Below, piece after piece: positions 3,551-34,847 of a stretch of 64,000 bases of DNA; within the stretch, counting starts at the first letter, position 1, and every line of letters begins with the position of its first letter. The notes under the pieces were generated by a model, which did not search any database, had not been told where the DNA came from, and saw nothing but the letters and a program-made list of their open reading frames with translations. The translations under genes were made by a program, and so were the position numbers. This DNA is from Acidobacteriota bacterium (GTDB lineage Bacteria > Acidobacteriota > Vicinamibacteria > Vicinamibacterales > UBA8438): contig DQNS01000112.1 of assembly GCA_015659035.1 (NCBI GenBank), positions 598 to 64,597 on the forward strand, in the 5' to 3' direction.

Positions 3551-4636
3551 CTAGCGTCCGGCCGGTCGTTCGAGGCCGAGGGCGTCGCGGACGTCGGCGG
3601 AGGCCTGCTCGAGCAGGTCGCCGAGCTCGATCCCCGTCGAGTCGGCAATGCGGACCATGCGCTCGAAGTTCGAGGCGACGCCGGCCGCGTCGACCATCGC
3701 CTCGGGGCCGAGGGCCTCGACCACCGCGGCGCGCGACTGCGCAAGGGTCTGGGCGCCGGTCACGATCGCCTCGGCGAACGCGACGAGCTCGGCACCGTGC
3801 GCCACCCCGCTCTCGAGGTTGTGGTCGGCCAGCGCCTCGACGTCGGCGGGCTCGCCGGTCAGCTCGCTGCTCGCCCGGAGCAGCCAGGCATGGGCGCTGG
3901 TTCAATAGAAGCAGTCGTTGAGCACCGAGACCCGTCCTGCGATTAGCTCCATCTGCGGGCGACTCAGCGCTCCCTGGGACGCGCTCGGATCGCGGACCTG
4001 CACATTCGGGAGGTAGTGGACCGCGCTCAGATCGTTCAAGGTCCACACCTCGTCCGGGACAAGGCTCATCGCGCGGATCACATTGCCGGTCCTGCCGGCC
4101 GGCCAGAGGTCGGCCTCGGGCGTTCCCGCGTTGTCGGCCGGCACCATCGGGACCCACGCCTCGTCGGGACCGGCGCTCGCAGGGCGGTAGCGGCGCGTCT
4201 CCCCGGGGAGCGGCGCGGGGAGCGGGTGCTCGGGCACCCCGATGCCGCGGCAGAACCGGTCGATGCTGACCAGGGCCACGACCGTGCCGATAATCTCGAC
4301 ATACTGCCCGTCGCTCAAGCCGTCGGCGAGGCGGGCTTCGTACCACTTCCGGGTGAGCCGTCCGGGGTCGGTCATCACCGCGTGGATGACCTCGACCGCG
4401 GCCGGGGGCAGGTCGGTCGCGGTGGTGTGGTTGCCGCAGACGGTGTGGGGCGAGAGCGCGGCCTTGCGCTCCCGGCAGTACGGACAGTCGCGGGCCGCCC
4501 GCGCCTCGCGCGCGATGGCGACGCGCTCGGCGCCGGTCCACCATGTCCCGCGCGCGGCGAGCCGGTCCCAGAACCGTTGATGGCTCTCGGCGAACCCTGT
4601 CCGGACCGGCGCCGGGACCTGTTCGTAGGTGATCAT
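3551..4636 (-). CDS. two-domain AhpD/carboxymuconolactone-decarboxylase (CMD) family protein, predicted selenoprotein (UGA at 3902..3904 read as Sec, CxxU)
   Basis: Track ORFs 3902..4636 and 3551..3805 are in the same frame and separated by a single TGA. Read-through gives ...RVSVLNDCFY-U-TSAHAWLL..., which matches the family CxxCxxxH motif. There is an upstream second CxxC (DCPYCRERK), 116 open codons follow the UGA, and a hairpin sits 17 nt downstream. Confidence 0.65.
3866..3904 (-). other. candidate Sec codon (3902..3904) plus SECIS-like hairpin (3866..3884)
   Basis: The mRNA reads UGA, then 17 nt, then GCUGCUC CGGGC GAGCAGC (7-bp GC stem, 5-nt G-rich loop). It is in the same size class as the hairpin after the fdnG Sec codon. 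Confidence 0.5.
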
Positions 4637-4684
4637 CGGTTTCCTCGCATCAGCGAATCCAACACGACCGGAAGGGCAGGTGCT

Positions 4685-6691
4685 TCACGGGAGCGCCAGG
4701 GCAATGAGCTCGGGCACGTCGCCACCTACCGTCAGGGCGATGTACTGCGTGCCTGCATGCATGTAGGTCATCGGCGTGCCGATGGCGCCGGCCGGGAGAT
4801 CCACCGACCCGACGATCTCGCCGGTCGCCTTGTCGCGGGCGATGAGGCGTGGGCCACCATCGGTACCGCCCGCGGTGAGCGCGCTGATGAGCAGCGTGCT
4901 GGTCAGAACCGGGCCGCCGAGTCCCTCGCCACCGAGCGGCGGCAGCTCCAGGTCGCGCAGCATCGGGTGGTTCCTGTAGCGGTCGCCAGCGCCGTTCGGT
5001 TGCATCCAGGCATGGTCGCCGGCGTTGAGGTCAATTGCGGTGATCCGCGAGTACGGCGGTTTGAACAGCGGCAGCCCCCGGGGCATGAGCGGCGTGGTGT
5101 CGAAGCCGCCCTGGGTGAACCGCAGGTTGCCGCCCTCCGCCGGGTCCGGCGTGATGTACTTCATCACCGAGAACGCGTTGACCGACGGCACGTACAGCAG
5201 ACCGGTCTCGGGGTCGACCGCCGAGCCCGGCCAGTTCGCGCCGCCGCCAATCGCCGGCCGCTGGATCGTGCCCTGGAGCCCGCCGTCCGCCGACAGCATC
5301 GGTGGGGTGAACAGGCCGCCGAGCCGGTGGTTTCGCACCGCCTCGACCGCCAGCGCGCGGATCTCGGGGGTGAAGTCGACCAGTTGATCGATCGACGCGC
5401 CTTGGTCCTCGAACGGTGGAGGCTTGGTCGGGAACGGCTGGGTCGGCGACAGGACGTCCCCCTCGAGGTCAGTGTCGGTCTCGACGGGGCGCTCCTCGAT
5501 CGGCCACACGGGGTCGCCGGTCGCCCGGTCGAAGACGTAGGTGAACCCCTGCTTGCTGACCTGCGCAAGCGCCTTGATCTCGCGTCCGTCGACCGTGATG
5601 TCGATCAGGTTGGGATGGGTCGGGAAGTCGTAGTCCCACACGCCGTGGTGCACCGCCTGGAAATGCCAGATGCGCTCGCCCGTTTCGATGTCGAGCGCGA
5701 CCAGGCTTTCGGCGAACAGGTTATCGCCCAGCCGGTGCCCGCCGTAGTAGTCGCTTGTAGGGGTGCCGGTCGGTACATAGATGTAGCCAAGCTCGTCATC
5801 GACGGCGAATGTCGACCAGGCGTTGGTGTTGCCCGAGTAGCGCCAGGACTCGTTCTGCCAGCTGTCGGAGCCGAAATCATCGGCCTGCGGGACCGTGCGG
5901 AAGGTCCACTTCGTGTCGCCGGTTCGCACGTCGATGCCCTTGACCCACCCGGGCGGCGCCTCCTTCGTGACCGGGAGATCGGAGATCACCGTCGGCGTCA
6001 CGACGACGTCGTGAGCGACGATCGGCGCTGACGCGACGCCGAGCCAGCTGTAGCCGAGCCGGTCGGTCGTGCCGCGTGTGGCGCGCGGAATGCCCTCGGT
6101 CAGGTCGACCCGACCGTTGTCGCCGAAGCTGCGCACCGGCTGGCCGGTCCCCGCATCGACCGCCAGCAGATACCCGTCGTTTGTGCCGTAGAGGATGCGC
6201 GCCTCGTCGCCGTCGGACCAGTAGGCGAGCCCGCGCGTGTTGTAGCTGAGGACACTGGCGTGCGGATACGGCGCGGCCAGGTAGGCCTGTGGGTCGTAGA
6301 CCCAGAGCACCTCGCCGGTGCCGGCGTCGAGGGCGGCCGACAGGGCGAGCGGTGTCGAGACATAGACCACGCCGCCGACCATCAAGGGGGTGGTCTTGAA
6401 GTTGCGGAGACCGATCTCGGGGTGGCGCTCGCGGAGGGCGTCCAGGTCGAGGGCGCCGTCCGCCGACTCCCATCGCCAGGCGATCGCGAGATCCGAGAAA
6501 TTCGACGCGTCGATCTGGTCGAGCGCCGAGTATTTCGTACCGCCGAGGTCGCCGGCGTAGGTAGGCCACTCGCCGTCGGTCGCCCCGTACTGGGCGCGGG
6601 CCGCACTAGGCCAGAGCAAGACAGCCACCGCTAGAAGGGCCAAGAGGGGGCGTGTCAGCCGACGCGTTATGAGCACCTCCAGAACAAGCAT
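4685..6691 (-). CDS. PQQ-dependent dehydrogenase (quinoprotein, beta-propeller), exported
   Basis: Internal ATG of ORF 4685..7408 gives MLVLEVLITRRLTRPLLALLAVAVLLWPSAARAQ (signal peptide). The sequence that follows, YGATDGEWPTYAGDLGGTKYSALDQI...AIAWRW, is typical of soluble quinoprotein glucose/alcohol dehydrogenases. Confidence 0.8.
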   Translation of the reverse strand: MLVLEVLITRRLTRPLLALLAVAVLLWPSAARAQYGATDGEWPTYAGDLGGTKYSALDQIDASNFSDLAIAWRWESADGALDLDALRERHPEIGLRNFKTTPLMVGGVVYVSTPLALSAALDAGTGEVLWVYDPQAYLAAPYPHASVLSYNTRGLAYWSDGDEARILYGTNDGYLLAVDAGTGQPVRSFGDNGRVDLTEGIPRATRGTTDRLGYSWLGVASAPIVAHDVVVTPTVISDLPVTKEAPPGWVKGIDVRTGDTKWTFRTVPQADDFGSDSWQNESWRYSGNTNAWSTFAVDDELGYIYVPTGTPTSDYYGGHRLGDNLFAESLVALDIETGERIWHFQAVHHGVWDYDFPTHPNLIDITVDGREIKALAQVSKQGFTYVFDRATGDPVWPIEERPVETDTDLEGDVLSPTQPFPTKPPPFEDQGASIDQLVDFTPEIRALAVEAVRNHRLGGLFTPPMLSADGGLQGTIQRPAIGGGANWPGSAVDPETGLLYVPSVNAFSVMKYITPDPAEGGNLRFTQGGFDTTPLMPRGLPLFKPPYSRITAIDLNAGDHAWMQPNGAGDRYRNHPMLRDLELPPLGGEGLGGPVLTSTLLISALTAGGTDGGPRLIARDKATGEIVGSVDLPAGAIGTPMTYMHAGTQYIALTVGGDVPELIALALP

Positions 6692-6841
6692 GACTCCTCT
6701 TTCGGTTTCGTGGGCACTGCCGAGTCGATCGTAAATGGGAGGCCCGTCGATTATACCGGCTGGAGGCTCCCGTCCGGTTTTGATACGATTCGGCAGAACC
6801 CGATCTTGTCCCTGCGATCTGGAGCAGGGGAAAGGGAAGCC

Positions 6842-10162: not shown

Positions 10163-11401
10163 CTAGGGTGCCACGCGCCAGGGAGAGACCTGCGGCCAGG
10201 TGGCCAGCGCGTCGAGCGCCCACGCCGTCGTCTGGTCGTCGTGACAGGCGGTGCAGGGGTTCGGGATGCCGTAGCGGTCGGTCAGCGCCGGTGAGATGAA
10301 CTTGAACGTGTGGCTCCGCACGTACACGTCGCCGACGGTCCGCGCGGTCAGCGGCATGTGGCACGCCACGCACAGGCTGCCTTCGCCGTCGGCCTCGTGT
10401 TGCGTGTGATACGCGAGCGACCCGCGTGGTCCGGCCTGTAGCTGTGGGCCGTGACATTCGAGACAGACGTCGTTCCCGGGCGCTATCAGATCCGCCTCGT
10501 GCTCCGTCCCGTGGACGTCGTGGCAGCCGTAGCAGGTGACCCCTTTTACATACATCTGGCTCTGCACGTAGTCGTTGCCCTGCATCCGGTTCTTGTGCGC
10601 CGAGCCCTCGGGCCAGTGCGTGAACGTCTCCTCGCCGAGGTCCGGTCCTTCCAGCTCCCAGAACTCGCTCAACCGGTCTCCCGGTTCAAAGCCCACCGGC
10701 CAGTCGTAGTAGACCCCCTCTATCGGGTTCTCGTGCGGCTGGCCCTGGGAGTGACACTGGATGCAGACGTCGTTGGCGCGTACCGGGTCGAGATGCGCCG
10801 GGTTGACGATGTTGTCGTCGGTCGGGTCGAGGTTGTGCGCGCTGCCCGGGCCGTGGCACTTCTCGCAGCCGACGTTCCATTCGGTCGGGGTCTTGGCGGT
10901 GATGTCGTAGTTCACCGAGTGACACCCGTCGCACAGCGGGCCGGTGGGACGCTGCATCTGGTCTTCCGGGTAGTGCTCGGTCCACCAGTCGCCGCCGGGT
11001 CGGGGGAAGTAGCGCCGCCACTGACGGTTGCGCACGTCCCACTGCGCGGGAAAGATGAAGTAGTCGTCTCCGATTTGGGTGTAGTAGCGCTGCTTCCACT
11101 TGCTGCCGTAAGTGAAGACGACGTCGTCCGGGGTGAACGTCACCAGCGGGTCGTTGAGCGTGAAATCGCCCAGGATCACGTCGGGCCGCTCACGGGGATC
11201 CTGCAGCACGTTCGCCATCAGGGTGTCCCGCCAGCGGGCATGGATCTCGACGTGGCATGCCTGGCACGACTCGGATCCCATGTAGACGGCGTCGGCTCCG
11301 TCGGTCGCGGGGGCAGAGGGTCGAGCGCATCCGGTCGCCACGACCAGGGTGACGAGGGCCCAGGGCCGCAGGCCGCGTGGCGAGGGCGGGAATCTATGCA
11401 T
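10163..11401 (-). CDS. octahaem c-type cytochrome, exported
   Basis: Internal ATG of ORF 10163..12079 (MHRFPPSPRGLRPWALVTLVVATGCA). It carries eight CxxCH motifs: CQACH, CDGCH, CEKCH, CIQCH, CYGCH, CLECH, CVACH and CTACH. Confidence 0.85.
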   Translation of the reverse strand: MHRFPPSPRGLRPWALVTLVVATGCARPSAPATDGADAVYMGSESCQACHVEIHARWRDTLMANVLQDPRERPDVILGDFTLNDPLVTFTPDDVVFTYGSKWKQRYYTQIGDDYFIFPAQWDVRNRQWRRYFPRPGGDWWTEHYPEDQMQRPTGPLCDGCHSVNYDITAKTPTEWNVGCEKCHGPGSAHNLDPTDDNIVNPAHLDPVRANDVCIQCHSQGQPHENPIEGVYYDWPVGFEPGDRLSEFWELEGPDLGEETFTHWPEGSAHKNRMQGNDYVQSQMYVKGVTCYGCHDVHGTEHEADLIAPGNDVCLECHGPQLQAGPRGSLAYHTQHEADGEGSLCVACHMPLTARTVGDVYVRSHTFKFISPALTDRYGIPNPCTACHDDQTTAWALDALATWPQVSPWRVAP

Positions 11402-11504
11402 GGCGCTCCGCACGATGATAGCCTCTTCCTCTCGAATAGTGCTCGATCTTGCACGCGCTCTCTCGCTGCGGGCTGGAGAGCACCACTGCACGCCGTTCAA
11501 GACG

Positions 11505-12239
11505 ATGACGAGACAGCCTCCGTGGTCGAGACTCACCGGTCTGACCATGCTGTTCGGTGTGCTGTGGCCGGTCGCGGCCTCTTCGCAGCAACGGTGCGCG
11601 TTCCTGTGTGTGCCGGACGTGAAGCTCGAGCCGACCGTCACCATCGAGCACCTGTTCGGGGCCGCCCGGGTCGAGGAGTTGGAGGACGGCGTCGTGGTCG
11701 CCACCACGAGAGAGGCGCGCGAGGCGGTCTTCGAGCTGATTCTCGCAGTGGGCATTCCGACCGAGATCCCCCGGGTCGGGTTCACCATCGAGACGATCTT
11801 CGTGCCGTTCGGCGAGACCGACACGCACCCGTTCACCGGGGCGACCGCCGCCGACGCCGGCCGGGCCTCGTTCCGGGACAACGGAATCGAGATAGAGCTC
11901 GAGCTGAACCTGACGATCCTCGAGGCGGCGCAGACCGGCGGCTGGGTTGAGAGCCACTTCGACATCGTGGACAAGATCAGCCCCGGCGGGATCCCCGGCG
12001 CCGGCAGCGTCCACACGCACAAGCTGAATTTCGAGCTCGACACCGCCTTCCTGCCCTTCAGCCGCTTGCCGGAGGACAACTGGCTCCATCACTTCGAGAT
12101 CGAGGGCTCGCTCGACTACGTGGCGACCGGGCTCCCGAAGGCTGGGGACGTGGTCGGCGGCGAGCGCTATCTGGATGACGCCAGCGCCTGGTCGTTCTCG
12201 CTGGTCGGCGTCATTCCCCTGGCGCCGCTCGCGCCTTGA
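11505..12239 (+). CDS. hypothetical exported beta-rich protein
   Basis: Internal ATG of ORF 11349..12239. MTRQPPWSRLTGLTMLFGVLWPVAASSQQ is a signal peptide. It is divergent from the octahaem cytochrome gene. Confidence 0.55.
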   Translation: MTRQPPWSRLTGLTMLFGVLWPVAASSQQRCAFLCVPDVKLEPTVTIEHLFGAARVEELEDGVVVATTREAREAVFELILAVGIPTEIPRVGFTIETIFVPFGETDTHPFTGATAADAGRASFRDNGIEIELELNLTILEAAQTGGWVESHFDIVDKISPGGIPGAGSVHTHKLNFELDTAFLPFSRLPEDNWLHHFEIEGSLDYVATGLPKAGDVVGGERYLDDASAWSFSLVGVIPLAPLAP

Positions 12240-24558: not shown

Positions 24559-25539
24559 TCACGTCAGCGACAATAGGCTCCGCCGGAGGGTCTCCGAGAC
24601 GAGCGATATCTTGTATCGGTTGCGCGCCAACGCTCGCGCACCCTCGACCGCGGCGGCGCCGGCGGCGGCGGCCAGCTCCGGGGTGAGGCGCTTGCCCACC
24701 AGCAGTCGTTCGACCGCCGCGACCCGCCAAGGAATCGGTGCCACGCCGCCCAGGGCGATCGCAGCGCGTCGGCAGACCCCGGGGTCGTCGCCGTCGTCGT
24801 CCAAGGTCAGGACCACCGCCGTGCTGACGACCGCGTGGGTCCACGCCTCGCGGTCCCTCACCTTGGTGTAGACGCTGCGCGCGCCGGGGCGCGGCGGTAG
24901 CGCCAGCTCGGTGACGATCTCGCCCGGCCGCAGCACGTTCTCGCGGGACACATCCTCGCTGGGCAGGACAAAGAACTCCCGGATGGGAAGCCAGCGGTCG
25001 CCGGCGTCGCCGACGATGTGGATCTGCGCGTCGAGCGCGACCAGCGCGGGCGCCGTGTCCGACGGGTGCACGATGAAGCTGGGGCCGCCACCTAGGATCG
25101 CGTTGAACTGATTTTCCCCCGTCCGGGAGAAGCATCGGGTGCCGCCGTGCTTGTAACAAGGAAAGCCCTGACGAAAATACCAGCACCAGGGGCGCTGGGT
25201 CAGGTTGCCGGCCAGGGTACCGGCGTTCCGGATCTGCGGTGTGCCCACCGACCCGGCCGCCTCGGCCAGCACCGCGTAGCGATCGCGGATCACAGGGTGC
25301 CGACTGAGCGCGCTGAGGGTGATCATCCCGCCGACCTGGACACCGCCGCCCGGCCGCGGCGCGATGGTGTCGAGCCCCGAGAGCTGCGTCAACCGGACGA
25401 GCCGGTCGGGTGCGGCCAGATCGTCCTTGATCATCCCGAGCAGATCGCTGCCGCCACCGACCGGCGCGGCACCCGTATCCCGCAACGCGGCGGTCGCGGC
25501 AGCGAGCGAGTCGGGGCTCATGTGCGCGAACCGTTTCAC
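24559..25539 (-). CDS. FAD-binding subunit of a xanthine dehydrogenase/aldehyde oxidoreductase family enzyme (PaoB/CoxM-like)
   Basis: The GTG at 25539 overlaps the upstream stop (GTGA); an alternative ATG is at 25521. GGGSDLLGMIKD...AGTLAGNL is typical of molybdopterin dehydrogenase FAD-binding subunits. Confidence 0.8.
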   Translation of the reverse strand: MKRFAHMSPDSLAAATAALRDTGAAPVGGGSDLLGMIKDDLAAPDRLVRLTQLSGLDTIAPRPGGGVQVGGMITLSALSRHPVIRDRYAVLAEAAGSVGTPQIRNAGTLAGNLTQRPWCWYFRQGFPCYKHGGTRCFSRTGENQFNAILGGGPSFIVHPSDTAPALVALDAQIHIVGDAGDRWLPIREFFVLPSEDVSRENVLRPGEIVTELALPPRPGARSVYTKVRDREAWTHAVVSTAVVLTLDDDGDDPGVCRRAAIALGGVAPIPWRVAAVERLLVGKRLTPELAAAAGAAAVEGARALARNRYKISLVSETLRRSLLSLT

Positions 25540-28235
25540 GCTAGCGTCTCCAGGATCCGATCGCGCGAGAACGGCAGCTCGTTCAATCGCCGCCCAGTCG
25601 CGTTGAAGATCGCGTTGCCGATCGCGGCCACCACCGGGATGATCGGCGGTTCGCCGATCGCCTTGGCCCCGTACGGTCCATAGGCGTCTTCCGGCTCCAC
25701 GAAGTGGACCTCGATCTCCGGGGTGTCCAGATGCGTCATCACCCGGGCGCCGTAGTAGCCGGGGTTGACCGGGATACCGGTGGCCCGGTCGTAGAGCAGC
25801 TCCTCGTGCAGCGCCATGCCGATGCCGATCGTGACACCGCCCTTCACCTGGCTGGCGGCGGTCAGCGGGTTGAGGATGCGGCCGCTCTCGTGCACGGCCA
25901 CATACCTGACCACCCGGACGTGCCCGACCGGCATGTCCACCGCGAGCTCGACGAAATGCGCAGCGCTGGCGTAGCGAGCCATCCCGTCGATCCGTGGATT
26001 CGTCGTTGCCTCGGCCACGAGCACCGCGTCGCCTCGGGGCGGACCCTGGGCGGACAGCTGCTGCGTGAGATCGGCAGCCGCCGCGAGCACGGCGTCGCCG
26101 GTCTGCACCGTCGTCCGGCTGCCGGATTCGCCAACCGAATAGGGACAGCGATCGGTGTCGCCCCAGACCACTCTCACGTCGTCGAGACGCATCTCCATCG
26201 CCTCGGCGGCCAGTAGTGCCATCGTCGTCTTGGCGGCGGTGCCGATGTCGGTGACCCCCACGTGGACCCAAAGATGTCCGTCGCCGTCGAGCCGCAGCAC
26301 GGCGCTGCTCCGGCCGGTGCGCGCGCTGAAAGCACCGGTCGCCATCCCGACACCACGTCGCACGGCTGGCTCCCCGGCGCCGGCGCGGCGCCATCGTGAC
26401 GCCCAGCCGAAGACCTCAGCCCCCCGCTCGATGCATTCTCTCAGCGCCCAGCTCGTGTAGGGCGTCTCGTCCATGTAGGCGCGGCTGACGTTCTTCAGGT
26501 GGAACGCCACCGGGTCGATCTCGAGCTCGTGGGCCATCTGGTCCATCATCGACTCGATGCCCCAGACCCCCTGCGGATACGCCGGTCCGCGGAAGTTCGC
26601 GCTGACCGTCATGTTCGTGTAGGTCGGGTGCACCACGCGCCGGACGTTGGGGCAACGGAATAGCTCGATCCCCGCGATGCCGCCGCTGCTCTTGCGGTGC
26701 GGACCGAGCCCGCTATAGCCGCGCAGCTCGATCGCCTTCAGGGTGCCGTCTCGGGTTGCGCCCACACGGTAGTACTGCCGCGTGGGCCAGCGGCCGTGCA
26801 CGCCGAGGAAATCCTCTTTCCGCGTGTACTCCAGCTTGACGGCGTTACCGGTCTCGCGGGCCAACACCGCCGCGATCAGGTCCGAGTCCTGACACTGGTT
26901 CTTGTTCCCGAACCCGCCGCCCATGTACTCGCAGACGACGCGGACGTCTGCCGGCGGCAGGTCGAGGTCGCGCGCCAGGTCGCGCTGGCAGTTCGAGACC
27001 CCCTGTGTCGGCGTCCAGACGGTCAGCCGGTCGCCGTCCCACCGGGCGACGCTGACACGCGGCTCGAGCTGAGCGTTGTTGATGTGCTTCGAGGTGAAGG
27101 CGTCCTCCAGCACCACATCCGACGCTGCGAATCCCGCGTCGAGTTCGCCACGCTCGTAGACCTCGGGCTCGCGCACGCCGCGGCCGCGCGTCGCTAGATT
27201 CCCGCCCGGCTGTATCTCCACGGCGCCGGGGCGCAACGCCTCTTCCGGGTCGAGCACGAAGTCCAGCGGCTCGTAGTCGACCACAATCGCCTTGAGCGCC
27301 TCCTCGGCGGTGTGACGGTCGACGGCCGCCACCGCCGCCACCGGGTCGCCCACGAACCGCACCGGGTCGTTGAAGAGAAACCGGTCGTTCCGCGAATCGC
27401 CGCTCGTCCAGACGACGTCGCAGGTGTTACGGCTGATCACGGCGCGCACGCCCGGTAGCCGCTCGGCGGGCCGCGTGTCGACGCGGCGGACCCGGGCGTG
27501 CGGATGGGGGCTGCGCAGCACCCGCGCGTACAGCATGCCGGGGAGTCGCACGTCGCCCGTATAGCGCGCCCGGCCGGTCACCCGTTCCGGGGCGTCGATA
27601 CGGGGGGTGAGGACCCCCACCGTCGTCAGCGCCCGCGCCGAGGCCGCGTCGGGCGAGGCGCCGTCGAGCACCGCCTCGACATACCGGTTGTAATTCGAGC
27701 AGCGGCAGATGTTGCCGACCAGGCCCTCGCGGACCTGGTCCCTGGTGGGGTTCGCGGTGTCGTCGAGCAGGGCGCTAGCCGACATCAGCTGGCCCGCGGT
27801 GCAGAACCCGCACTGCGGACCGTCGTGTTCGACGAACCGTTGTTGCAGCGGGTTCAGCCGGTCGCCGTCGGCCAGCCCTTCGACGGTGGACACCTCCCGG
27901 CCGTCGGCCCAGACCGCGAGCTGGCTGCAGGCGTAGACGGTGGTGCCGTCGAGCCGGACCGTGCAGGCGCCGCACTCGCCCCGGTCGCAGCCAACCTTGG
28001 TTCCGGTCAGACCCAGGTGGTCGCGCAGAACCTCGGCCAGTGTCCAGCGGTCCTCGACCTCGAGGGCGTGTGTCTCGCCGTTGACACGCAGAGAGATACG
28101 CGTACGTGGAGCGGGGTCAGCCGGCTGGTCGCCGACCGGCTGCCCCGCGCCACGCATCTTCAGCGTGGGCAGGGTCGTGGCGGCGGCGAGCGCCCCCGTA
28201 CGTTCGATGAACGAGCGTCGCGAGATGCGGCCCAT
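25536..28235 (-). CDS. Tat-exported fusion of a [2Fe-2S] subunit and a molybdopterin-binding subunit (xanthine dehydrogenase/aldehyde oxidoreductase family, PaoA-PaoC-like)
   Basis: The twin-arginine signal is MGRISRRSFIERTGALAAA. The two 2Fe-2S motifs are CDRGECGACTV and CGFCTAG...CRCSNY. They are followed by about 680 aa of a large-subunit-like sequence. Confidence 0.85.
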   Translation of the reverse strand: MGRISRRSFIERTGALAAATTLPTLKMRGAGQPVGDQPADPAPRTRISLRVNGETHALEVEDRWTLAEVLRDHLGLTGTKVGCDRGECGACTVRLDGTTVYACSQLAVWADGREVSTVEGLADGDRLNPLQQRFVEHDGPQCGFCTAGQLMSASALLDDTANPTRDQVREGLVGNICRCSNYNRYVEAVLDGASPDAASARALTTVGVLTPRIDAPERVTGRARYTGDVRLPGMLYARVLRSPHPHARVRRVDTRPAERLPGVRAVISRNTCDVVWTSGDSRNDRFLFNDPVRFVGDPVAAVAAVDRHTAEEALKAIVVDYEPLDFVLDPEEALRPGAVEIQPGGNLATRGRGVREPEVYERGELDAGFAASDVVLEDAFTSKHINNAQLEPRVSVARWDGDRLTVWTPTQGVSNCQRDLARDLDLPPADVRVVCEYMGGGFGNKNQCQDSDLIAAVLARETGNAVKLEYTRKEDFLGVHGRWPTRQYYRVGATRDGTLKAIELRGYSGLGPHRKSSGGIAGIELFRCPNVRRVVHPTYTNMTVSANFRGPAYPQGVWGIESMMDQMAHELEIDPVAFHLKNVSRAYMDETPYTSWALRECIERGAEVFGWASRWRRAGAGEPAVRRGVGMATGAFSARTGRSSAVLRLDGDGHLWVHVGVTDIGTAAKTTMALLAAEAMEMRLDDVRVVWGDTDRCPYSVGESGSRTTVQTGDAVLAAAADLTQQLSAQGPPRGDAVLVAEATTNPRIDGMARYASAAHFVELAVDMPVGHVRVVRYVAVHESGRILNPLTAASQVKGGVTIGIGMALHEELLYDRATGIPVNPGYYGARVMTHLDTPEIEVHFVEPEDAYGPYGAKAIGEPPIIPVVAAIGNAIFNATGRRLNELPFSRDRILETLA

Positions 28236-30189: not shown

Positions 30190-33180
30190 ATGCCGATTTC
30201 CCGCCGCACCTTTCTGAAGGCCTCCGTCGCCGGGGTCGGGATCAGTGCGTTGGGCTTCGACCTGAAGCCGGCCTACGCAGCGGTCCGCCAGCTCAAGATC
30301 CGCAACGCGCGCGAGTACAAGACGGTGTGCCCCTACTGCGCCGTCGGCTGCGGCACGATCGCGTATGTCCACGGCAGCGGCGGGCTCAACACCACCAACA
30401 CCATCATCCACGTCGAGGGCGACCCCGACAACCCGATCAACGGCGGGACGCTCTGCCCGAAGGGCGCCTCGCAGATGGGGCTTGCCATCAGCCCGCGGCT
30501 GCGCAAGAGCCCGATGTTCCGCGAGGGCGGCGCCAGCGAGTGGCGCGAGGTGGACTGGGACTTCGCCATGGACTGGTTGGCGCGCAAGTTCAAGGAGTCG
30601 CGCGACGCGACGTTCACCGAGCAGGACAGCCAGGGCCGCACCGTCAACCGCACGAACGGTATCGCCTGGGTCGGCAGCGCCACGGTCGCCAACGAGGACG
30701 CGTATCTGATTACCAAGACGATGCGCGCCATGGGGCTGACCTACATCGACCACCAGGCACGCATATGACACAGCCCCACGGTGGCCAGTCTGGCCGCCAC
30801 GTTCGGTCGGGGCGCGATGACCAACCACTGGAAAGACATCAAGAACGCCGATGTCGTCCTGGTGATGGGCGCCAACCCGGCCGAGAATCATCCCTGTGGC
30901 TTCAAGTGGGCGCTCGAGGCGCGTGACGAGAACGGCGCGAAGCTGGTCACGATCGACCCGCGGTTCACGCGGACCTCGGCCGTGGCCGACAAGCATCTGC
31001 AGATCCGGCCCGGCTCCGACATCGCCATTCTCGGCGGGCTGATCCGGCACATCCTCACCAACGACCTGCACCACGCCGACTACGTGCGGGCGCACACCAA
31101 CGCGTCGTTCATCATCAGTGGTGACTTCGGGTTCGAGGACGGGCTGTTCTCCGGGTTCGAGGAGGCGGGCAGCCGCTACGACAAGACTTCCTGGAGCTAC
31201 CAGCGGGCGGCGGATGGCTATGTCCGCCGGGACCCGACGCTCGAGGACCCGCAGTGCGTCTTCCAGCTCCTCAGGCGGCACTACGACCGGTATACACCGG
31301 CGATGGTGGCGCAGATTGCCGGCTGCTCCGAGGAGAAGTTTCTGGAGATGGCCGACATCATCTGCTCGACCGGTCGGGCCGATCGGGTCGGCACCATCAT
31401 GTATGCAGTCGGGTGGACCATGCACACCGTCGGCAGCCAGATCATCCGCACCGGGGCGATCCTGCAGCTGCTGTTGGGCAATATCGGGCGACCTGGCGGC
31501 GGCATCAACGCGCTCCGCGGGCATGCCAACGTGCAGGGTGCCACCGACCATGCCATCGTCGCCGGTATCCTGCCCGGCTACCTGAAGGTGCCTACGCCGG
31601 AGCAGACCACGCTGGCCGAGCATCTCGAGGCGTCGACACCGCAACCGCTCGTGCCGGACACGGTGAACTACTGGGGCAACTATCCCAAGTTTCTGGTGTC
31701 GCAGCTCAAGGCTTGGTTTGGCGACAGCGCCACGGCGGCCAACGAGTTCGGGTATCACTATCTCGGCAAGCCGGACGGCGACGCCACCTGGCTGTCGATC
31801 TGGGACGAGGCCTACCACGGGCGGCTCGAGGGGTTCATCACGCTCGGGTTCAACCCGCTGCTGGCCGGTCCGGACATCCCGCGGCTGCTCAAGTCGATGT
31901 CGCGCCTGAAGTGGATGACGGTCATCGACCCGTTCATGCTCGATAGCGCCGAGTTCTGGAAAGCGCCGGGGATGAACCCGGCCGAGATCGACACCGAGGT
32001 GCTGTATCTGCCGACCACGCACTGGATCGAGCGCGACGGCTCGTTCACCAACAGCGGTCGGTGGGCCCAATGGAAAGAGAAGGCGATCGACCCGCCCGAC
32101 GGCGTACGGTCCGACACCTGGGTTCTGTCGGAGCTGTTCTGGCGGGTGAAAGAGCTCTACCAGCAGGACGGCGGCGCGTACGACGAGCCGATCCAGAATC
32201 TGACCTGGGCCTACCTGAACCCGCGCGAGCCGACGCTGGTCGAGTTGGCGAAGGAGATCAACGGCTACGACCATGAGACCGGGCAGCTGCTCTCGTCGTT
32301 CGGTCAGCTCCAGGACGACGGCGGCACGAGCTCGGGCAACTGGCTCTACACCGGCAGCTACACCGAGGCGGGCAACATGATGGCCCGGCGAGGCACCGCC
32401 GACCCGACCGGCCTCGGCATGCACCACGACTGGGCGTTCAGCTGGCCGGCGAATCGGCGGGTGCTCTACAACCGGGCCTCGGCCGACGCCGAGGGGCGGC
32501 CGTGGGACCCGTCGCGGGCCGGCATCGCCTGGACCGGTCGCGAGTGGATCGGTGATGTGCCGGACTATGGGCGGACCACTCCGCCCGACGCCGCCGGCGC
32601 GTTCATCATGACCGAGGAGGGGGTGGCGCGTCTCTTCAGCAGCCAGATGGCCGACGGTCCGTTCTCCGAGCACTACGAGCCGGTCGAGAGCCCGACCGGT
32701 AACGCGCTCCACGAGTCGGTGCCGGTGAACCCGGTCATCAACTGGTATGACGGTGTCCGCGAGACGCTGGCGGCAGAGGGCGACGACTTCCCGCACGCCT
32801 GTACCATCTATCGGGTGGTCGAGCACGAGCACTTCGTCACCGCCAATGTGCCGTTGCTGGTCGAGGCGATGCCCGACTTCTTCATCGAGCTCCCGGAGGG
32901 GCTCGCCGCCGAGAAGGGGATCGAGAACGGCGGTCGTGCCCGGGTCTGGTCGAAACGCGGGGAAGTCGAGGGGGTCGCCATCGTCACCAAGCGGATCAAG
33001 CCGTTGACGGTCAACGGCCAGACGGTCTGGACCGTCGGGATTCCGGTCCACTGGGGGTTCGCCGGCGGCACCGGCAGCACCCACGCATCGATGGCGAACC
33101 TGCTGACCCCCTTCATCGGCGATGCCAACACCCGGTGCCCCGAGTTCAAGGCGTTTCTGGTGAACGTGGAGAGGGCGTGA
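30190..33180 (+). CDS. fdnG: formate dehydrogenase-N/O type alpha subunit, selenocysteine-containing (UGA 30766..30768), Tat-exported
   Basis: MPISRRTFLKASVAG is the Tat signal, and CPYCAVGCG is present. HQARI-U-HSPTVASLAATFGRGAMTNHW is nearly identical to E. coli FdnG around U196. Track ORFs 29866..30768 and 30781..33180 are in frame. Confidence 0.92.
30766..30798 (+). other. Sec codon and SECIS-like hairpin of fdnG
   Basis: UGA, then 11 nt, then GGUGGCC AGUCU GGCCGCC (7 bp including one G-U pair, 5-nt loop containing GU). Confidence 0.7.
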
Positions 33181-34043
33181 TGCCAGACACCCTTGCGATC
33201 AAACGTATCTCGGCCAGCCCCAGCGCGCTGATTCCGCTGGAGTCGCTCCGGTCGGGCGGACCGGTGTACTCGAAGCTGGTCGACATCTCGAAGTGCATCG
33301 GGTGCAAGGGGTGCGAGGTCGCCTGCAAGGAGTGGAACGACCTGAAGGTGGAGCAGACGTCCAACTTCGGCAGCATGCAGAGCCACAAGGATCTGTCGTC
33401 GAACACCTGGTTGCTGATGCGGTTCAACGAGGTGGAGATTGGCGACGATCTAAGCTGGATGATCAAGAAGGACGCCTGTCTGCACTGCGAGGAGCCGGGG
33501 TGTCTGTTTGCCTGCCCGGCGCCGGGAGCAATTGTCCAGTATCAGAACGGCATCGTCGACTTCAACCAGGACCAGTGCATCGGGTGCCAGAATTGCGTCT
33601 CCGGCTGTCCGTTCGACATCCCCCGGTTCGACAAAGAGACCAAGACGGTCGCCAAGTGCAACATGTGCATCGACCGGGTCGAGGTGGGGCTCGAGCCGGC
33701 CTGCGTGAAGACCTGTCCGACCAACGCCATCCAGTGGGGCATCAAGGACGACATGCTCGCGCTGGCCGAGAAGAAGGTCGAGACGATGAAGCGTCGCGGA
33801 TACGAGCATGCTGCGTTGTACAACCCGGGTGGTGTCGGCGGCACCCACATGATGTATGTCGTGCCGCATGGGGACCGGCTCGAGGACTACAGCCTCCCGG
33901 CGCACCCGGTGGCCAGTCCCGCGCCGCTCGGCGGGCTGAACGTGCTGCGACGGGTCGGGTCGTATCTACTCGGTTTCGGCGTCCTGTCGGCGCTGGCGCA
34001 CTTCCTCGCCGTCGGCCCGATGAGCCCGGAGGAAGACTCGTGA
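33180..34043 (+). CDS. fdnH: formate dehydrogenase beta subunit (4Fe-4S ferredoxin type)
   Basis: The ATG overlaps the fdnG stop. Cluster motifs are CIGCKGCEVACKEWN, CLHCEEPGC and CIGCQNCVSGCP, and there is a C-terminal TM helix. Confidence 0.9.
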   Translation: MPDTLAIKRISASPSALIPLESLRSGGPVYSKLVDISKCIGCKGCEVACKEWNDLKVEQTSNFGSMQSHKDLSSNTWLLMRFNEVEIGDDLSWMIKKDACLHCEEPGCLFACPAPGAIVQYQNGIVDFNQDQCIGCQNCVSGCPFDIPRFDKETKTVAKCNMCIDRVEVGLEPACVKTCPTNAIQWGIKDDMLALAEKKVETMKRRGYEHAALYNPGGVGGTHMMYVVPHGDRLEDYSLPAHPVASPAPLGGLNVLRRVGSYLLGFGVLSALAHFLAVGPMSPEEDS

Positions 34044-34048
34044 TCTCT

Positions 34049-34093
34049 GAGGAGACAGAAGTCAGGAGACAGGAGAAGCCGGAAGACTTCGCC
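34049..34093 (-). repeat. CTCCTGY heptad-family repeat, copy 4 (purine strand on +)
   Basis: GAGGAGACAGAAGTCAGGAGACAGGAGAAGCCGGAAGACTTCGCC. Its reverse complement aligns with copies 3 and 6, including the GCGAAG module. Confidence 0.8.
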
Positions 34094-34190
34094 ATCTATT
34101 CTGTTTCTGGCCTCAGCTGTTGCTCGAGAGGCAACGGTCGGTGTTGACCTGGGCGGACCGCACTTCTGGAAGCGGCGCAGCCCACCTATT

Positions 34191-34232
34191 TCCTTCTGTC
34201 TCCTGCCTCCTGCCTCCTGTCTCCTTCGTGTC
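34191..34232 (+). repeat. CTCCTGY heptad-family repeat, copy 5, abutting the fdnI start codon
   Basis: TCCTTCTGTCTCCTGCCTCCTGCCTCCTGTCTCCTTCGTGTC is followed directly by ATG 34233. Confidence 0.8.
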
Positions 34233-34847
34233 ATGAGCCAACCGCTCCTTCTCCGTTTCACTTTCCTCCACCGCGTCGTTCACTGGGTGGTCGGCATGAC
34301 GTTTGTCGTGCTGCTGCTCACCGGGTTGGCGTTCTCCTACCCGTCGCTGTTCTGGCTGACGACCCTGCTCGGCGGTGGGCCGGCCGCACGGGTGCTGCAC
34401 CCGCAGATCGGCGCCGTCTTCGGGGTGGGGTTGCTGGTCATGTTCGTCCTCTGGGTCCGGGACATGTTTCTGGATGCGCCGGACCGGCAGTGGCTGGGCG
34501 CCATCAAGCACTATGCCGCGCACGAGCACGACAAGGTGCCGCCGGCCGGGAAGTACAACGCCGGGCAGAAGCTGTTCTTCTGGCTGCAGAGTCTGCTGGG
34601 GGTTCTGTTCGTCGCGACCGGGTTGCTGCTGTGGTTTCCCGAGTCTTTCGGTTCCGGGCTGCTGAACACGATGCGGCTGCTGCACTTCGCCGCCGCGCTG
34701 GCTGGCGGGCTGCTGCTGATTCTGCATGTCTATCTGGGCACTGTCGCCTATCCCGGCACCGCCCGCGGGATGATCGACGGGAAGGTCACCACCGCCTGGG
34801 CGCGTCTGCATCACCCACGCTGGTCCGGCGAGCGGGTCGAGCGTTGA
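34233..34847 (+). CDS. fdnI: formate dehydrogenase gamma subunit (cytochrome b556)
   Basis: It has four TM helices with conserved His residues (HRVVHW, HPQIG, LHVYLG). The call also rests on its position after fdnH. Confidence 0.85.
   Translation: MSQPLLLRFTFLHRVVHWVVGMTFVVLLLTGLAFSYPSLFWLTTLLGGGPAARVLHPQIGAVFGVGLLVMFVLWVRDMFLDAPDRQWLGAIKHYAAHEHDKVPPAGKYNAGQKLFFWLQSLLGVLFVATGLLLWFPESFGSGLLNTMRLLHFAAALAGGLLLILHVYLGTVAYPGTARGMIDGKVTTAWARLHHPRWSGERVER

Follow-up and report, generated by a model that had tools for sequence, protein, structure and literature searches.

The locus considered here raises a simple question. Does a TGA triplet, lying between two open reading frames on the minus strand, end one gene or encode a selenocysteine (Sec) residue within it? 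Note that "the window" refers, throughout, to the whole 64-kb stretch of DNA that was analysed. The original prediction, made from the sequence of the window, was that the two frames are one, divided only by the TGA at 3902..3904. Read-through was said to generate a C-x-x-U-x-x-x-H motif, with a further CxxC in the N-terminal half of the protein. All of this is evident upon inspection. The frame runs, on the minus strand, from an ATG at 4636 to a TAG at 3553..3551, and comprises 362 codons. The sole internal stop is the TGA at 3904..3902. Thus, the 244 amino acid open reading frame (3902..4636) is in frame with the 116 codons 3' of the TGA (3901..3554). On either side, GC3 is of the coding type (0.87 and 0.94 in the two halves). 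The read-through peptide is ...RVSVLNDCFY-U-TSAHAWLL..., where NDCFY-TGA-TSAH is encoded at 3913..3890 of the minus strand, and the motif is C242-x-x-U245-x-x-x-H249. The N-terminal CxxC is within the sequence DCPYC (C51 and C54). Upstream, a PQQ-dehydrogenase gene ends at 4685, leaving an intergenic gap of 48 nt. This contains a GAGGAA element (4641..4646) that may be a functional ribosome-binding site. Scanning for promoters and terminators near the gene revealed nothing relevant on the minus strand. The features discussed are listed in Table 1.

We conclude that the region 4636..3551, on the minus strand, is probably one gene, encoding a 361-residue selenoprotein of family NF041238, with the UGA at 3904..3902 read as selenocysteine. 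Judged from the DNA sequence and its relatives, we put the probability of this reading at about 0.93.

Table 1. Positions, in the window, of the predicted selenoprotein gene, its elements and the fdn genes.
Feature	Position	Strand	Comment
Predicted selenoprotein CDS, complete	3551..4636	minus	361 aa plus TAG stop (3553..3551); NF041238 member
Shine-Dalgarno-like GAGGAA	4641..4646	minus	4 nt 5' of ATG 4636; read from sequence
N-terminal C51-P-Y-C54 motif	4475..4486	minus	C51 and C54 invariant or at least 95% conserved in family
Predicted active site E230-x11-C242-F-Y-U245-T-S-A-H249	3890..3949	minus	C-terminal AhpD/CMD domain
Predicted UGA selenocysteine codon (U245)	3902..3904	minus	TGA at homologous codon in 79/79 readable loci
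Bacterial SECIS-type hairpin	3866..3884	minus	Begins 17 nt 3' of UGA; inside CDS
Hairpin parts	stem 3884..3878; loop 3877..3873; stem 3872..3866	minus	GCUGCUC; CGGGC; GAGCAGC
fdnG Sec codon	30766..30768	plus	HQARI-U-HSPTV; CDS about 30190..33180
fdnH	33135..34040
fdnI	34233..34844

The protein belongs to a known selenoprotein family

The read-through product was compared with NF041238, an NCBIfam equivalog profile. The match has an E-value of 7.9e-140, its score of 466.1 bits exceeds the cutoff of 175, and it is end to end (residues 11-357 align with profile positions 1-354 of 357). NF041238 is a curated model called AhpD_rel_CFYUT, "alkylhydroperoxidase-related (seleno)protein, CFYUT", and takes its name from the CFYUT motif. 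In our protein, C-F-Y-U-T is present, with the U derived from the in-frame TGA. In a 2026 review, NF041238 is treated as the same family as "hypothetical protein 1" (CxxU) from the 2005 Sargasso Sea selenoproteome (PMC13188914). In that work, Zhang, Fomenko and Gladyshev predicted "hypothetical protein 1" to be a selenoprotein (PMC1088965). Hence, the Sec codon was called correctly, but the family is already known; it was predicted in 2005 and is curated at NCBI. The original prediction did recall that AhpD-like, or CMD, selenoproteins had been predicted in metagenomic surveys. This is so, but how well known they are was underrated. With NF041238 and "hypothetical protein 1", our protein shares the CFYUT motif, the CxxU signature, a length of about 360 residues and a SECIS-type hairpin following the UGA. 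There is no difference of substance from NF041238, and we regard the protein as an ordinary member. Its closest relatives are from Vicinamibacterales MAGs (74-83% identity), whereas the family was first sighted in marine metagenomes.

Two other groups of selenoprotein, AhpD-like 1 (COG2128/TIGR01926) and AhpD-like 2/CMD (PF02627), belong to the same superfamily. Both have a CxxU motif, in which Sec stands in for the second Cys, and a SECIS immediately downstream, as seen here. Such single-domain proteins form some of the most abundant marine selenoprotein families (PMC2398784). The C-terminal domain of our protein matches TIGR01926 with an E-value of 1.2e-11, though the score of 44.7 bits is below the cutoff of 81.8. 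While AhpD-like 1 and 2 proteins have one domain, of about 180 residues, our protein has an additional conserved N-terminal region, of about 200 residues, with its own CxxC. The use of Sec also differs. In the GOS data, Cys homologues of AhpD-like 1 outnumber Sec forms by 902 to 299 (PMC2398784). Conversely, Sec is nearly exclusive in the NF041238 family.

Since the family, the CxxU motif and the Sec codon are already found in NCBIfam, and in selenoproteome surveys going back to 2005, the discovery value of the locus is small. There is value for annotation. As had been claimed, gene callers split such genes; among the 120 best database entries, 118 are truncated at the TGA and so stop at C-x-x. 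Hence, nearly all public metagenome-derived entries for the family share the same error. The locus should be annotated as one 361-residue selenoprotein, rather than two hypothetical open reading frames or a pseudogene. The protein has a wide distribution among marine and soil bacteria, and comparative data could aid its characterisation. Useful in this regard are the tightly conserved, covarying SECIS hairpin, its fossil counterparts in rare variants with Cys or Arg, the nearly exclusive use of Sec and a probable second AhpD-like repeat.

The UGA codon is conserved across distant lineages

A TGA was found at the homologous codon in every one of 79 readable GTDB-species loci. In each case, the frame runs on for 116-160 codons. 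The loci are from Vicinamibacteria, Thermoanaerobaculia, Gamma- and Alphaproteobacteria, Myxococcota, Binatia, Spirochaetales, Methylomirabilota, Limnocylindria and Entotheonella. The peptide encoded 3' of the UGA is strongly conserved (for example, NFERMVRIAD at a level of at least 95%). One Cys form was identified among the best 120 protein clusters. This natural homologue, P0067, has a TGT at the Sec codon position, and its CFYCTSAH sequence crosses the junction, with the second Cys aligned to U. Hence, two checks set out with the prediction, namely the existence of such a homologue and conservation of the 116 downstream codons as protein, gave the anticipated result. We conclude that nearly all members of the family contain Sec.

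The UGA codon falls within a predicted AhpD-type active site

The UGA had been placed at the catalytic CxxCxxxH of an AhpD/CMD-family protein, and profile searches agree. Aside from the full-length match to NF041238, Pfam family CMD (PF02627) matches across the TGA, at residues 219-266, when U is replaced by Cys. The margin is narrow (25.7 bits, cutoff 23). Similarly, the AhpD core domain TIGR00778 matches residues 222-262 (28.3 bits, cutoff 27.8). The predicted active site aligns with ELLAVVVSGLNRCVYCAVSH of PDB entry 6k40, and with 3c1l and 2pfx. Residues E230, C242, U245 and H249 each share a column with the signature residues of these structures, and U245 is opposite the second Cys of E-x11-CxxC-x3-H in solved AhpD-family structures. 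Within the family, E230 and C242 are invariant. The three structures, of D. radiodurans AhpD (6k40), M. loti Mlr4105 (3c1l) and a Silicibacter protein (2pfx), align to residues 216-335, over about 115 residues. They share E-x11-C-x-x-C-x-x-x-H and the helices that follow. They differ in having Cys, not Sec, and in being single-domain proteins of 185-197 residues. Identity is about 25-30%, with E-values from 1e-5 to 4e-4.

M. tuberculosis AhpD is an alkylhydroperoxidase that reduces AhpC using lipoamide. Its second CxxC Cys is the attacking nucleophile and is activated by a His/Glu relay. We take its signature to be Glu-x11-Cys-x-x-Cys-x-x-x-His, with the Sec position of our protein equivalent to the second, nucleophilic, Cys. 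The match is at the level of the domain only (TIGR00778), and the architecture is different. Structural modelling used the natural Cys homologue, P0067. The C-terminal half of the model has pLDDT values of only 35-60, because the alignment is shallow there. Foldseek searches with this model gave AhpD chains as the best matches, but with an E-value of 0.2. Hence, the AhpD fold proposed for the C-terminal domain is a prediction from sequence similarity.

The original description was of a two-domain AhpD/CMD protein. While this stands for the C-terminal domain, the AhpD-likeness of the N-terminal domain is only sub-threshold. Aligning the N- and C-terminal domains, using hhalign, placed CxxC in register with CxxU (P 0.0023, probability 12.6%). 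The N-terminal domain profile also had weak matches in the PDB (2oyo, E 0.14; 6k40, E 0.47), while Pfam identified no credible family for this domain. The 244 amino acid open reading frame alone gave a confident in silico fold (pLDDT 91). In Foldseek searches with this model, the top 23 matches were all AhpD/CMD, but weak (E 0.1-4, TM 0.34-0.47). We conclude that the N-terminal domain, with its CxxC, probably represents a second AhpD-like repeat that has diverged, with the support falling below threshold.

Given the confident fold of the 244-residue product, the UGA might be a genuine stop. The product would then be functional, with the following 116 codons untranslated, or translated separately, with initiation at, for example, GTG 3805. 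Gene callers give exactly this annotation. Furthermore, Sec decoding of UGA in bacteria is never fully efficient, so some truncated product is expected. However, termination would split the AhpD domain midway through its active-site helix, and both the second redox residue and the predicted catalytic His would be lost. Beyond the TGA, an in-frame start is first encountered at GTG 3805, which is 33 codons further on and past H249. In addition, the open frame, the conserved peptide and a hairpin with frozen synonymous sites (see below) are kept across phyla. We consider genuine termination very unlikely.

A SECIS-type hairpin is conserved downstream of the UGA codon

In bacteria, a SECIS is a stem-loop within the coding region, immediately 3' of the UGA (PMC1088965). 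The hairpin predicted here, GCUGCUC-CGGGC-GAGCAGC, was found as described, at 3884..3866 and 17 nt after the UGA. It was proposed that covariation be sought in orthologous loci, and this was detected. The 7-bp stem and 5-nt loop occur in an identical register in 77 loci. Considering 539 cells, 95.0% pair, and sliding the register lowers this to 27-55%. A compensatory change is seen at pair 22:38, where 44 loci have CG and 19 have AU. Double changes occur in 22 cells, a number reached by none of 500 shuffles. The apical loop is C-G-K-G-N, with G29 invariant and G31 at least 90% conserved. Hence, the hairpin has the position, the small loop with a conserved guanosine, and the pairing conserved beyond protein need, that characterise a bacterial SECIS. 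We propose that it would recruit SelB, with Sec-tRNA(Sec), to a ribosome paused at the UGA.

Folding of the single sequence, which has a GC content of 67%, was no better than for shuffles (z = -0.28), and 77 of 200 shuffles fold equally well. The hairpin is present in the centroid structure, but a competing fold, lower in energy by 0.3 kcal/mol, is the MFE structure. We therefore rejected single-sequence folding as evidence for a SECIS, and the significance of the hairpin derives from comparative data only. A scan of the whole window, at Rfam gathering thresholds, produced no match. Note that the hairpin is kept in variants with Cys (TGT) or Arg (CGA) at the Sec position. Hence, its presence alone is no proof of current Sec decoding.

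The UGA codon is probably decoded as selenocysteine

The fdnG gene, encoding the alpha subunit of formate dehydrogenase-N, is also in the window (TIGR01553, 1344 bits, cutoff 814). As stated in the original prediction, this has a Sec codon and a hairpin beginning 11 nt 3' of the TGA. Because fdnG has a canonical Sec site, the organism decodes UGA as Sec. Conversely, the genetic code is standard, since TGA terminates many of the genes in the window. No selA, selB, selD or tRNA-Sec was found within the window, where ARAGORN detected no tRNA of any type. For this reason, the presence of Sec machinery is inferred from fdnG. In 5 loci, selD divergently adjoins the family gene.

These observations bear on a second alternative, that the UGA is read through without selenium, as Cys, Trp or Gly. 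The hairpin would then serve only to stimulate stop-codon read-through, or be an incidental outcome of the conserved L-L-R-A-S peptide that it overlaps. Such a reading accommodates persistence of the hairpin in the Cys and Arg variants, and the lack of sel genes in the window. However, synonymous sites are fixed far beyond the needs of the peptide. Leu is CUC in 79 of 80 cases and Ser is AGY in 80 of 80, compared with backgrounds of 39% and 40%, respectively, in the same genes. Arg is never CGC (background 47%), and the third position of the next codon is always G. Moreover, the CG to AU swap alters two amino acids jointly, Leu to Met and Ser to Ile, so that the pair is kept. Many genes of the window use TGA as an ordinary stop, fdnG has its canonical Sec site and selD is adjacent to the gene in 5 loci. 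Finally, the position is that of a redox Cys, the classic site of Sec/Cys exchange. We give selenium-independent read-through as little credence as genuine termination. The idea that the gene is a pseudogene, with the two frames being decay products of a Cys AhpD-like gene after sequencing error or a recent TGC/TGT to TGA mutation, has almost no likelihood; although a Cys form exists (P0067, TGT) and is one base change from TGA, the same codon is TGA in all 79 loci, which span about ten lineages at the phylum level, and it is precisely here that 118 independent database clusters end. Moreover, the downstream region has no more stops or frameshifts, a GC3 of 0.94 and a conserved peptide.

Possible roles of the selenoprotein

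The protein is predicted to be all-helical, with Sec in place of the second Cys of the AhpD CxxC. Most probably, it functions as a selenol/thiol oxidoreductase, and this could be a peroxidase-related enzyme or one that reduces disulfides or selenenylsulfides. We envisage attack by U245 upon the oxidised substrate, followed by resolution of the selenenylsulfide by C242. The N-terminal CxxC may be an electron relay or bind metal. Genomic context is uninformative regarding the substrate; no neighbour was common to more than 10 of 80 loci, so there was no hint of a conserved operon partner. The upstream PQQ-dehydrogenase gene was rejected as a conserved partner on these grounds. Likewise, neither ahpC nor a lipoamide-system gene was a conserved neighbour among the loci.

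A bolder proposal is that the family is an obligate selenoenzyme, with a true need for selenium, in which the CxxU domain is coupled to a diverged AhpD-like domain with an invariant CxxC. The idea draws upon the near-exclusive use of Sec, which sets the family apart from single-domain AhpD-like families, where Cys forms are more numerous. We view this as unlikely. If true, the protein could be a self-recycling, intramolecular, two-domain selenol/thiol relay. Alternatively, it might catalyse chemistry beyond thiol-disulfide exchange, such as reductive dehalogenation. The latter is suggested by analogy with the CMD-fold debrominase Bmp8 and Sec-dependent deiodinases. Note that Bmp8 was only a weak structural match in Foldseek searches with the P0067 model.

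Other candidate selenocysteine sites in the window

Three further candidates, elsewhere in the window, were rejected. The TGA at 12237..12239, on the plus strand, divides two independent genes, the second of which encodes a serine hydrolase that has a Met and a signal peptide of its own. The TGA junction at 33541/33542, on the minus strand, is antisense to fdnH, and the sequence is not protein-like. Lastly, the open reading frame at 10166..12079, also on the minus strand, weakly matches NF041198 ("UshA-like selenoprotein"). It encodes a multihaem cytochrome, with no Sec site, and the real start is probably the ATG at 11390.

Gene structure and family membership

The frame at 4636..3551 on the minus strand was read directly from the sequence. 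It comprises 362 codons, between the ATG at 4636 and a TAG at 3553..3551, and its sole internal stop is the TGA at 3904..3902. This confirms the in-frame TGA gene described in the original prediction. Third-position GC is 0.87 upstream, and 0.94 downstream, of the TGA (window GC is 67%). Both flanks are strongly coding by this measure. Elsewhere in the window TGA ends many other genes in the ordinary way, so the standard code applies. The 361-residue read-through product (...RVSVLNDCFY-U-TSAHAWLL...) contains the expected redox motif, C242-x-x-U245-x-x-x-H249, and the anticipated second CxxC lies in the N-terminal part (DCPYC; C51 and C54). Features are listed in the table.

Features of the window and of related loci
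Feature	Coordinates	Strand	Evidence or remark
Shine-Dalgarno-like GAGGAA	4 nt before ATG 4636	-	direct sequence reading
Hairpin GCUGCUC/CGGGC/GAGCAGC	3884..3866	-	starts 17 nt after UGA
PQQ-dependent dehydrogenase	4688-6700	-	TIGR03074-like, 371 bits, below cutoff
Long ORF	10163-12088	-	weak decahaem-cytochrome and NF041198 'UshA-like (seleno)protein' matches
XDH/aldehyde oxidoreductase-type molybdoenzyme, large, N-terminal 2Fe-2S subunit fused	25539-28235	-	profile scores
fdnGHI (formate dehydrogenase-N) operon, complete	30190-34844	+	fdnG TIGR01553, 1344 bits
selD neighbour in related loci	L049:814-1824; also L054, L055, L059, L074	-	4/5 loci Alphaproteobacteria MAGs

For profile searches, U was entered as Cys. 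The product then scores 466 bits on the NCBIfam equivalog model NF041238 ('AhpD_rel_CFYUT: alkylhydroperoxidase-related (seleno)protein'), against a curated cutoff of 175 (E 7.9e-140). The match aligns residues 11-357 with profile positions 1-354 of 357. Pfam CMD (PF02627) matches residues 219-266, across the TGA, and its 25.7 bits exceed the gathering score of 23. The cutoff of TIGR00778, which models the AhpD core domain, is narrowly passed (28.3 versus 27.8). Assignment to the AhpD/CMD family was therefore correct. Three solved structures could be aligned with residues 216-335: those of D. radiodurans AhpD (6k40, E 1.3e-5), an M. loti protein (3c1l) and a Silicibacter protein (2pfx). In these proteins, E-x11-C-x-x-C-x-x-x-H matches E230, C242, U245 and H249 column for column. 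Hence, U245 lies opposite the second cysteine of their CxxC.

The catalytic system of M. tuberculosis AhpD is Cys133/His137/Glu118. By analogy, U245 would serve as nucleophile in a selenol/thiol redox centre of the CxxU type, assisted by H249 and E230, with C242 resolving the selenenylsulfide. The N-terminal CxxC may serve as an electron relay or a metal ligand. SelB, carrying Sec-tRNA(Sec), would bind the downstream hairpin and decode the UGA. Genuine termination, giving a 244-aa product, would sever the active-site helix.

The UGA codon is conserved across phyla

A search of 5.8 billion proteins identified 1254 relatives, and the 120 best clusters were inspected. Among these, 118 are ORFs of 241-296 residues, with nearly all in the range 241-256, whose final three residues are C-x-x; they are truncated at the Sec TGA. 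The predicted splitting by ORF calling also occurs in the window, where the frame is listed as a 244-aa ORF (3902..4636) and a GTG-started 84-aa ORF (3551..3805). The family is systematically mis-annotated in ENA, JGI, Logan and NCBI MAG gene calls. Truncated entries are mostly unnamed or called 'hypothetical protein'. The two full-length clusters are a natural Cys form (P0067, CFYCTSAH), in which a Cys homologue spans the junction as the original prediction envisaged, and an Arg form (P0003, CFYRTSAH).

We also scanned one genome per GTDB species, which yielded 80 loci. The closest are from Vicinamibacteria (74-83% identity). Others are from Thermoanaerobaculia, Gamma- and Alphaproteobacteria, Myxococcota, Binatia, Spirochaetales, Methylomirabilota, Limnocylindria and Entotheonella. 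Although one search pattern (DCFYCTSA) was biased toward Cys forms, TGA occupies the homologous codon in all 79 readable loci. Sec use in the family is near-exclusive. Beyond the TGA, the frame runs for 116-160 further codons, and the peptide that they encode is conserved; for example, NFERMVRIAD is at least 95% identical across 67 full-length sequences. Because this peptide is conserved, neither a pseudogene nor a simple terminator can explain the locus. One Binatia MAG locus (L030) has two tandem paralogues, with TGA at locus nt 3729 and 4986, both reading CFY-U-T.

The downstream hairpin is under RNA-level constraint

The hairpin lies where predicted. Its place in the coding sequence, just after the UGA, fits the description of bacterial SECIS elements in PMC1088965. 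In this one sequence it does not stand out: dinucleotide-shuffled versions of the 48-nt segment fold about equally well (z = -0.28), and a competing fold is the MFE structure. Across relatives, this 7-bp stem with its 5-nt loop recurs in identical register (alignment columns 21-27 with 33-39) at 77 distinct loci. Standard pairs fill 95.0% of the 539 stem cells, and shifting the 3' arm by 1-3 nt lowers this to 27-55%. Conservation and covariation, the proposed checks, are both apparent. At pair 22:38, 44 loci have C:G and 19 have A:U; this compensatory swap replaces Leu by Met and Ser by Ile at the same time. Pair 23:37 is either U:A or U:G. Loop position G29 and the four inner pairs are almost invariant.

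In the 5' arm, 79 of 80 loci encode Leu by CUC, which makes up 39% of the Leu codons in the rest of these genes, and in the 3' arm all 80 encode Ser by AGC or AGU (background 40%). The loop Arg codon is CGU or CGG, never CGC (background 47%), and the following codon always ends in G. These sequence patterns indicate RNA-level selection at synonymous sites. Genuine termination leaves this constraint, and the conserved downstream peptide, unexplained; we consider it very improbable.

The Cys form, encoded by TGT at L081:164-1267, is the only one found, and its hairpin is well formed (GUUGCUC/CGGGU/GAGCGGC). In the Arg form, CGA replaces the Sec TGA in four independent marine-metagenome assemblies (L082:3001-4071, also L083-L085), with the hairpin fully intact. 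The Arg form is a real population variant, and should be without the redox selenol. Both hairpins are best read as fossil SECIS elements from recent conversions of a Sec ancestor.

Selenocysteine decoding and gene context

As originally claimed, fdnG (about 30190..33180) has a Sec codon, TGA 30766..30768, within HQARI-U-HSPTV, and a hairpin beginning 11 nt later (z = -1.69). No selA, selB, selD or tRNA-Sec gene was found in the 64-kb window. Hence, we infer, rather than observe, the Sec machinery. In five related loci, selD (TIGR00476, 364 bits) is found upstream of the family gene, divergently oriented and at a distance of 1.2-1.4 kb; a sixth cluster member (L028), an open-ended 2.7-kb ORF, was left out of this count. 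The selD gene is the only recurrent neighbour obviously tied to selenium.

These selD neighbours and fdnG, together with the SECIS-type features and the redox-Cys position, support the selenoprotein interpretation. They make read-through without Sec just as implausible as termination. A pseudogene or sequencing error at the TGA, least credible of all, is excluded by cross-phylum conservation.

No conserved operon partner was found among the 80 loci, with no neighbour common to more than 10. In the window, a gap of 48 nt separates the end of the PQQ-dehydrogenase gene from the start of the selenoprotein gene that follows it on the minus strand, and the two may be co-transcribed. The pairing is not conserved elsewhere in the 80 loci.

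Relation to known selenoproteins

AhpD-like selenoproteins do appear in metagenomic surveys, as the original prediction stated. The 2005 Sargasso Sea selenoproteome includes 27 AhpD-like CxxU sequences, and four sequences of 'hypothetical protein 1', with a conserved CXXU and predicted SECIS but no functional assignment (PMC1088965). A 2026 review identifies the latter protein with NF041238 (PMC13188914). 'AhpD-like 1', which ranks fourth in abundance among GOS selenoprotein families, counts 299 Sec forms against 902 Cys homologues (PMC2398784). Since the target family is already curated and described, the finding is a correct re-discovery. Interest remains in the gene-call truncation, near-exclusive Sec use, the fossil hairpins retained by the rare Cys and Arg forms, and the uncharacterised N-terminal CxxC domain.

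The N-terminal domain and other window features

In the family alignment, C51, C54, H19, H70, H85 and E114 of the N-terminal domain are invariant. No Pfam or NCBIfam model covers this region on its own. Aligning N- and C-domain profiles with hhalign places CxxC in register with CxxU and the following helices (pairwise P = 0.0023, with an HH probability of only 12.6%). The N-domain HMM matches AhpD-family chains 2oyo (E 0.14) and 6k40 (E 0.47), spanning the whole domain. AlphaFold modelled the 244-aa ORF, in its exact sequence, with confidence (pLDDT 91.3, pTM 0.90), and the model's 23 top Foldseek matches in the PDB are all AhpD/CMD chains (E 0.1-4, TM 0.34-0.47). From these three weak but concordant comparisons, the N-terminal domain is probably a diverged second AhpD-like repeat. 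Hence, of the two AhpD/CMD domains originally proposed, the C-terminal one is supported by sequence similarity and the N-terminal one is probable.

The molybdoenzyme scores below every equivalog cutoff, including that of the selenium-dependent XDH model (385 versus 830 bits). No Sec site was seen in the 10163-12088 ORF. The true coding sequence here probably begins at ATG 11390 and specifies a multihaem cytochrome c, with several CxxCH motifs. The portion of the ORF upstream is an antisense shadow, cast by the gene at 11286..12239 on the plus strand.
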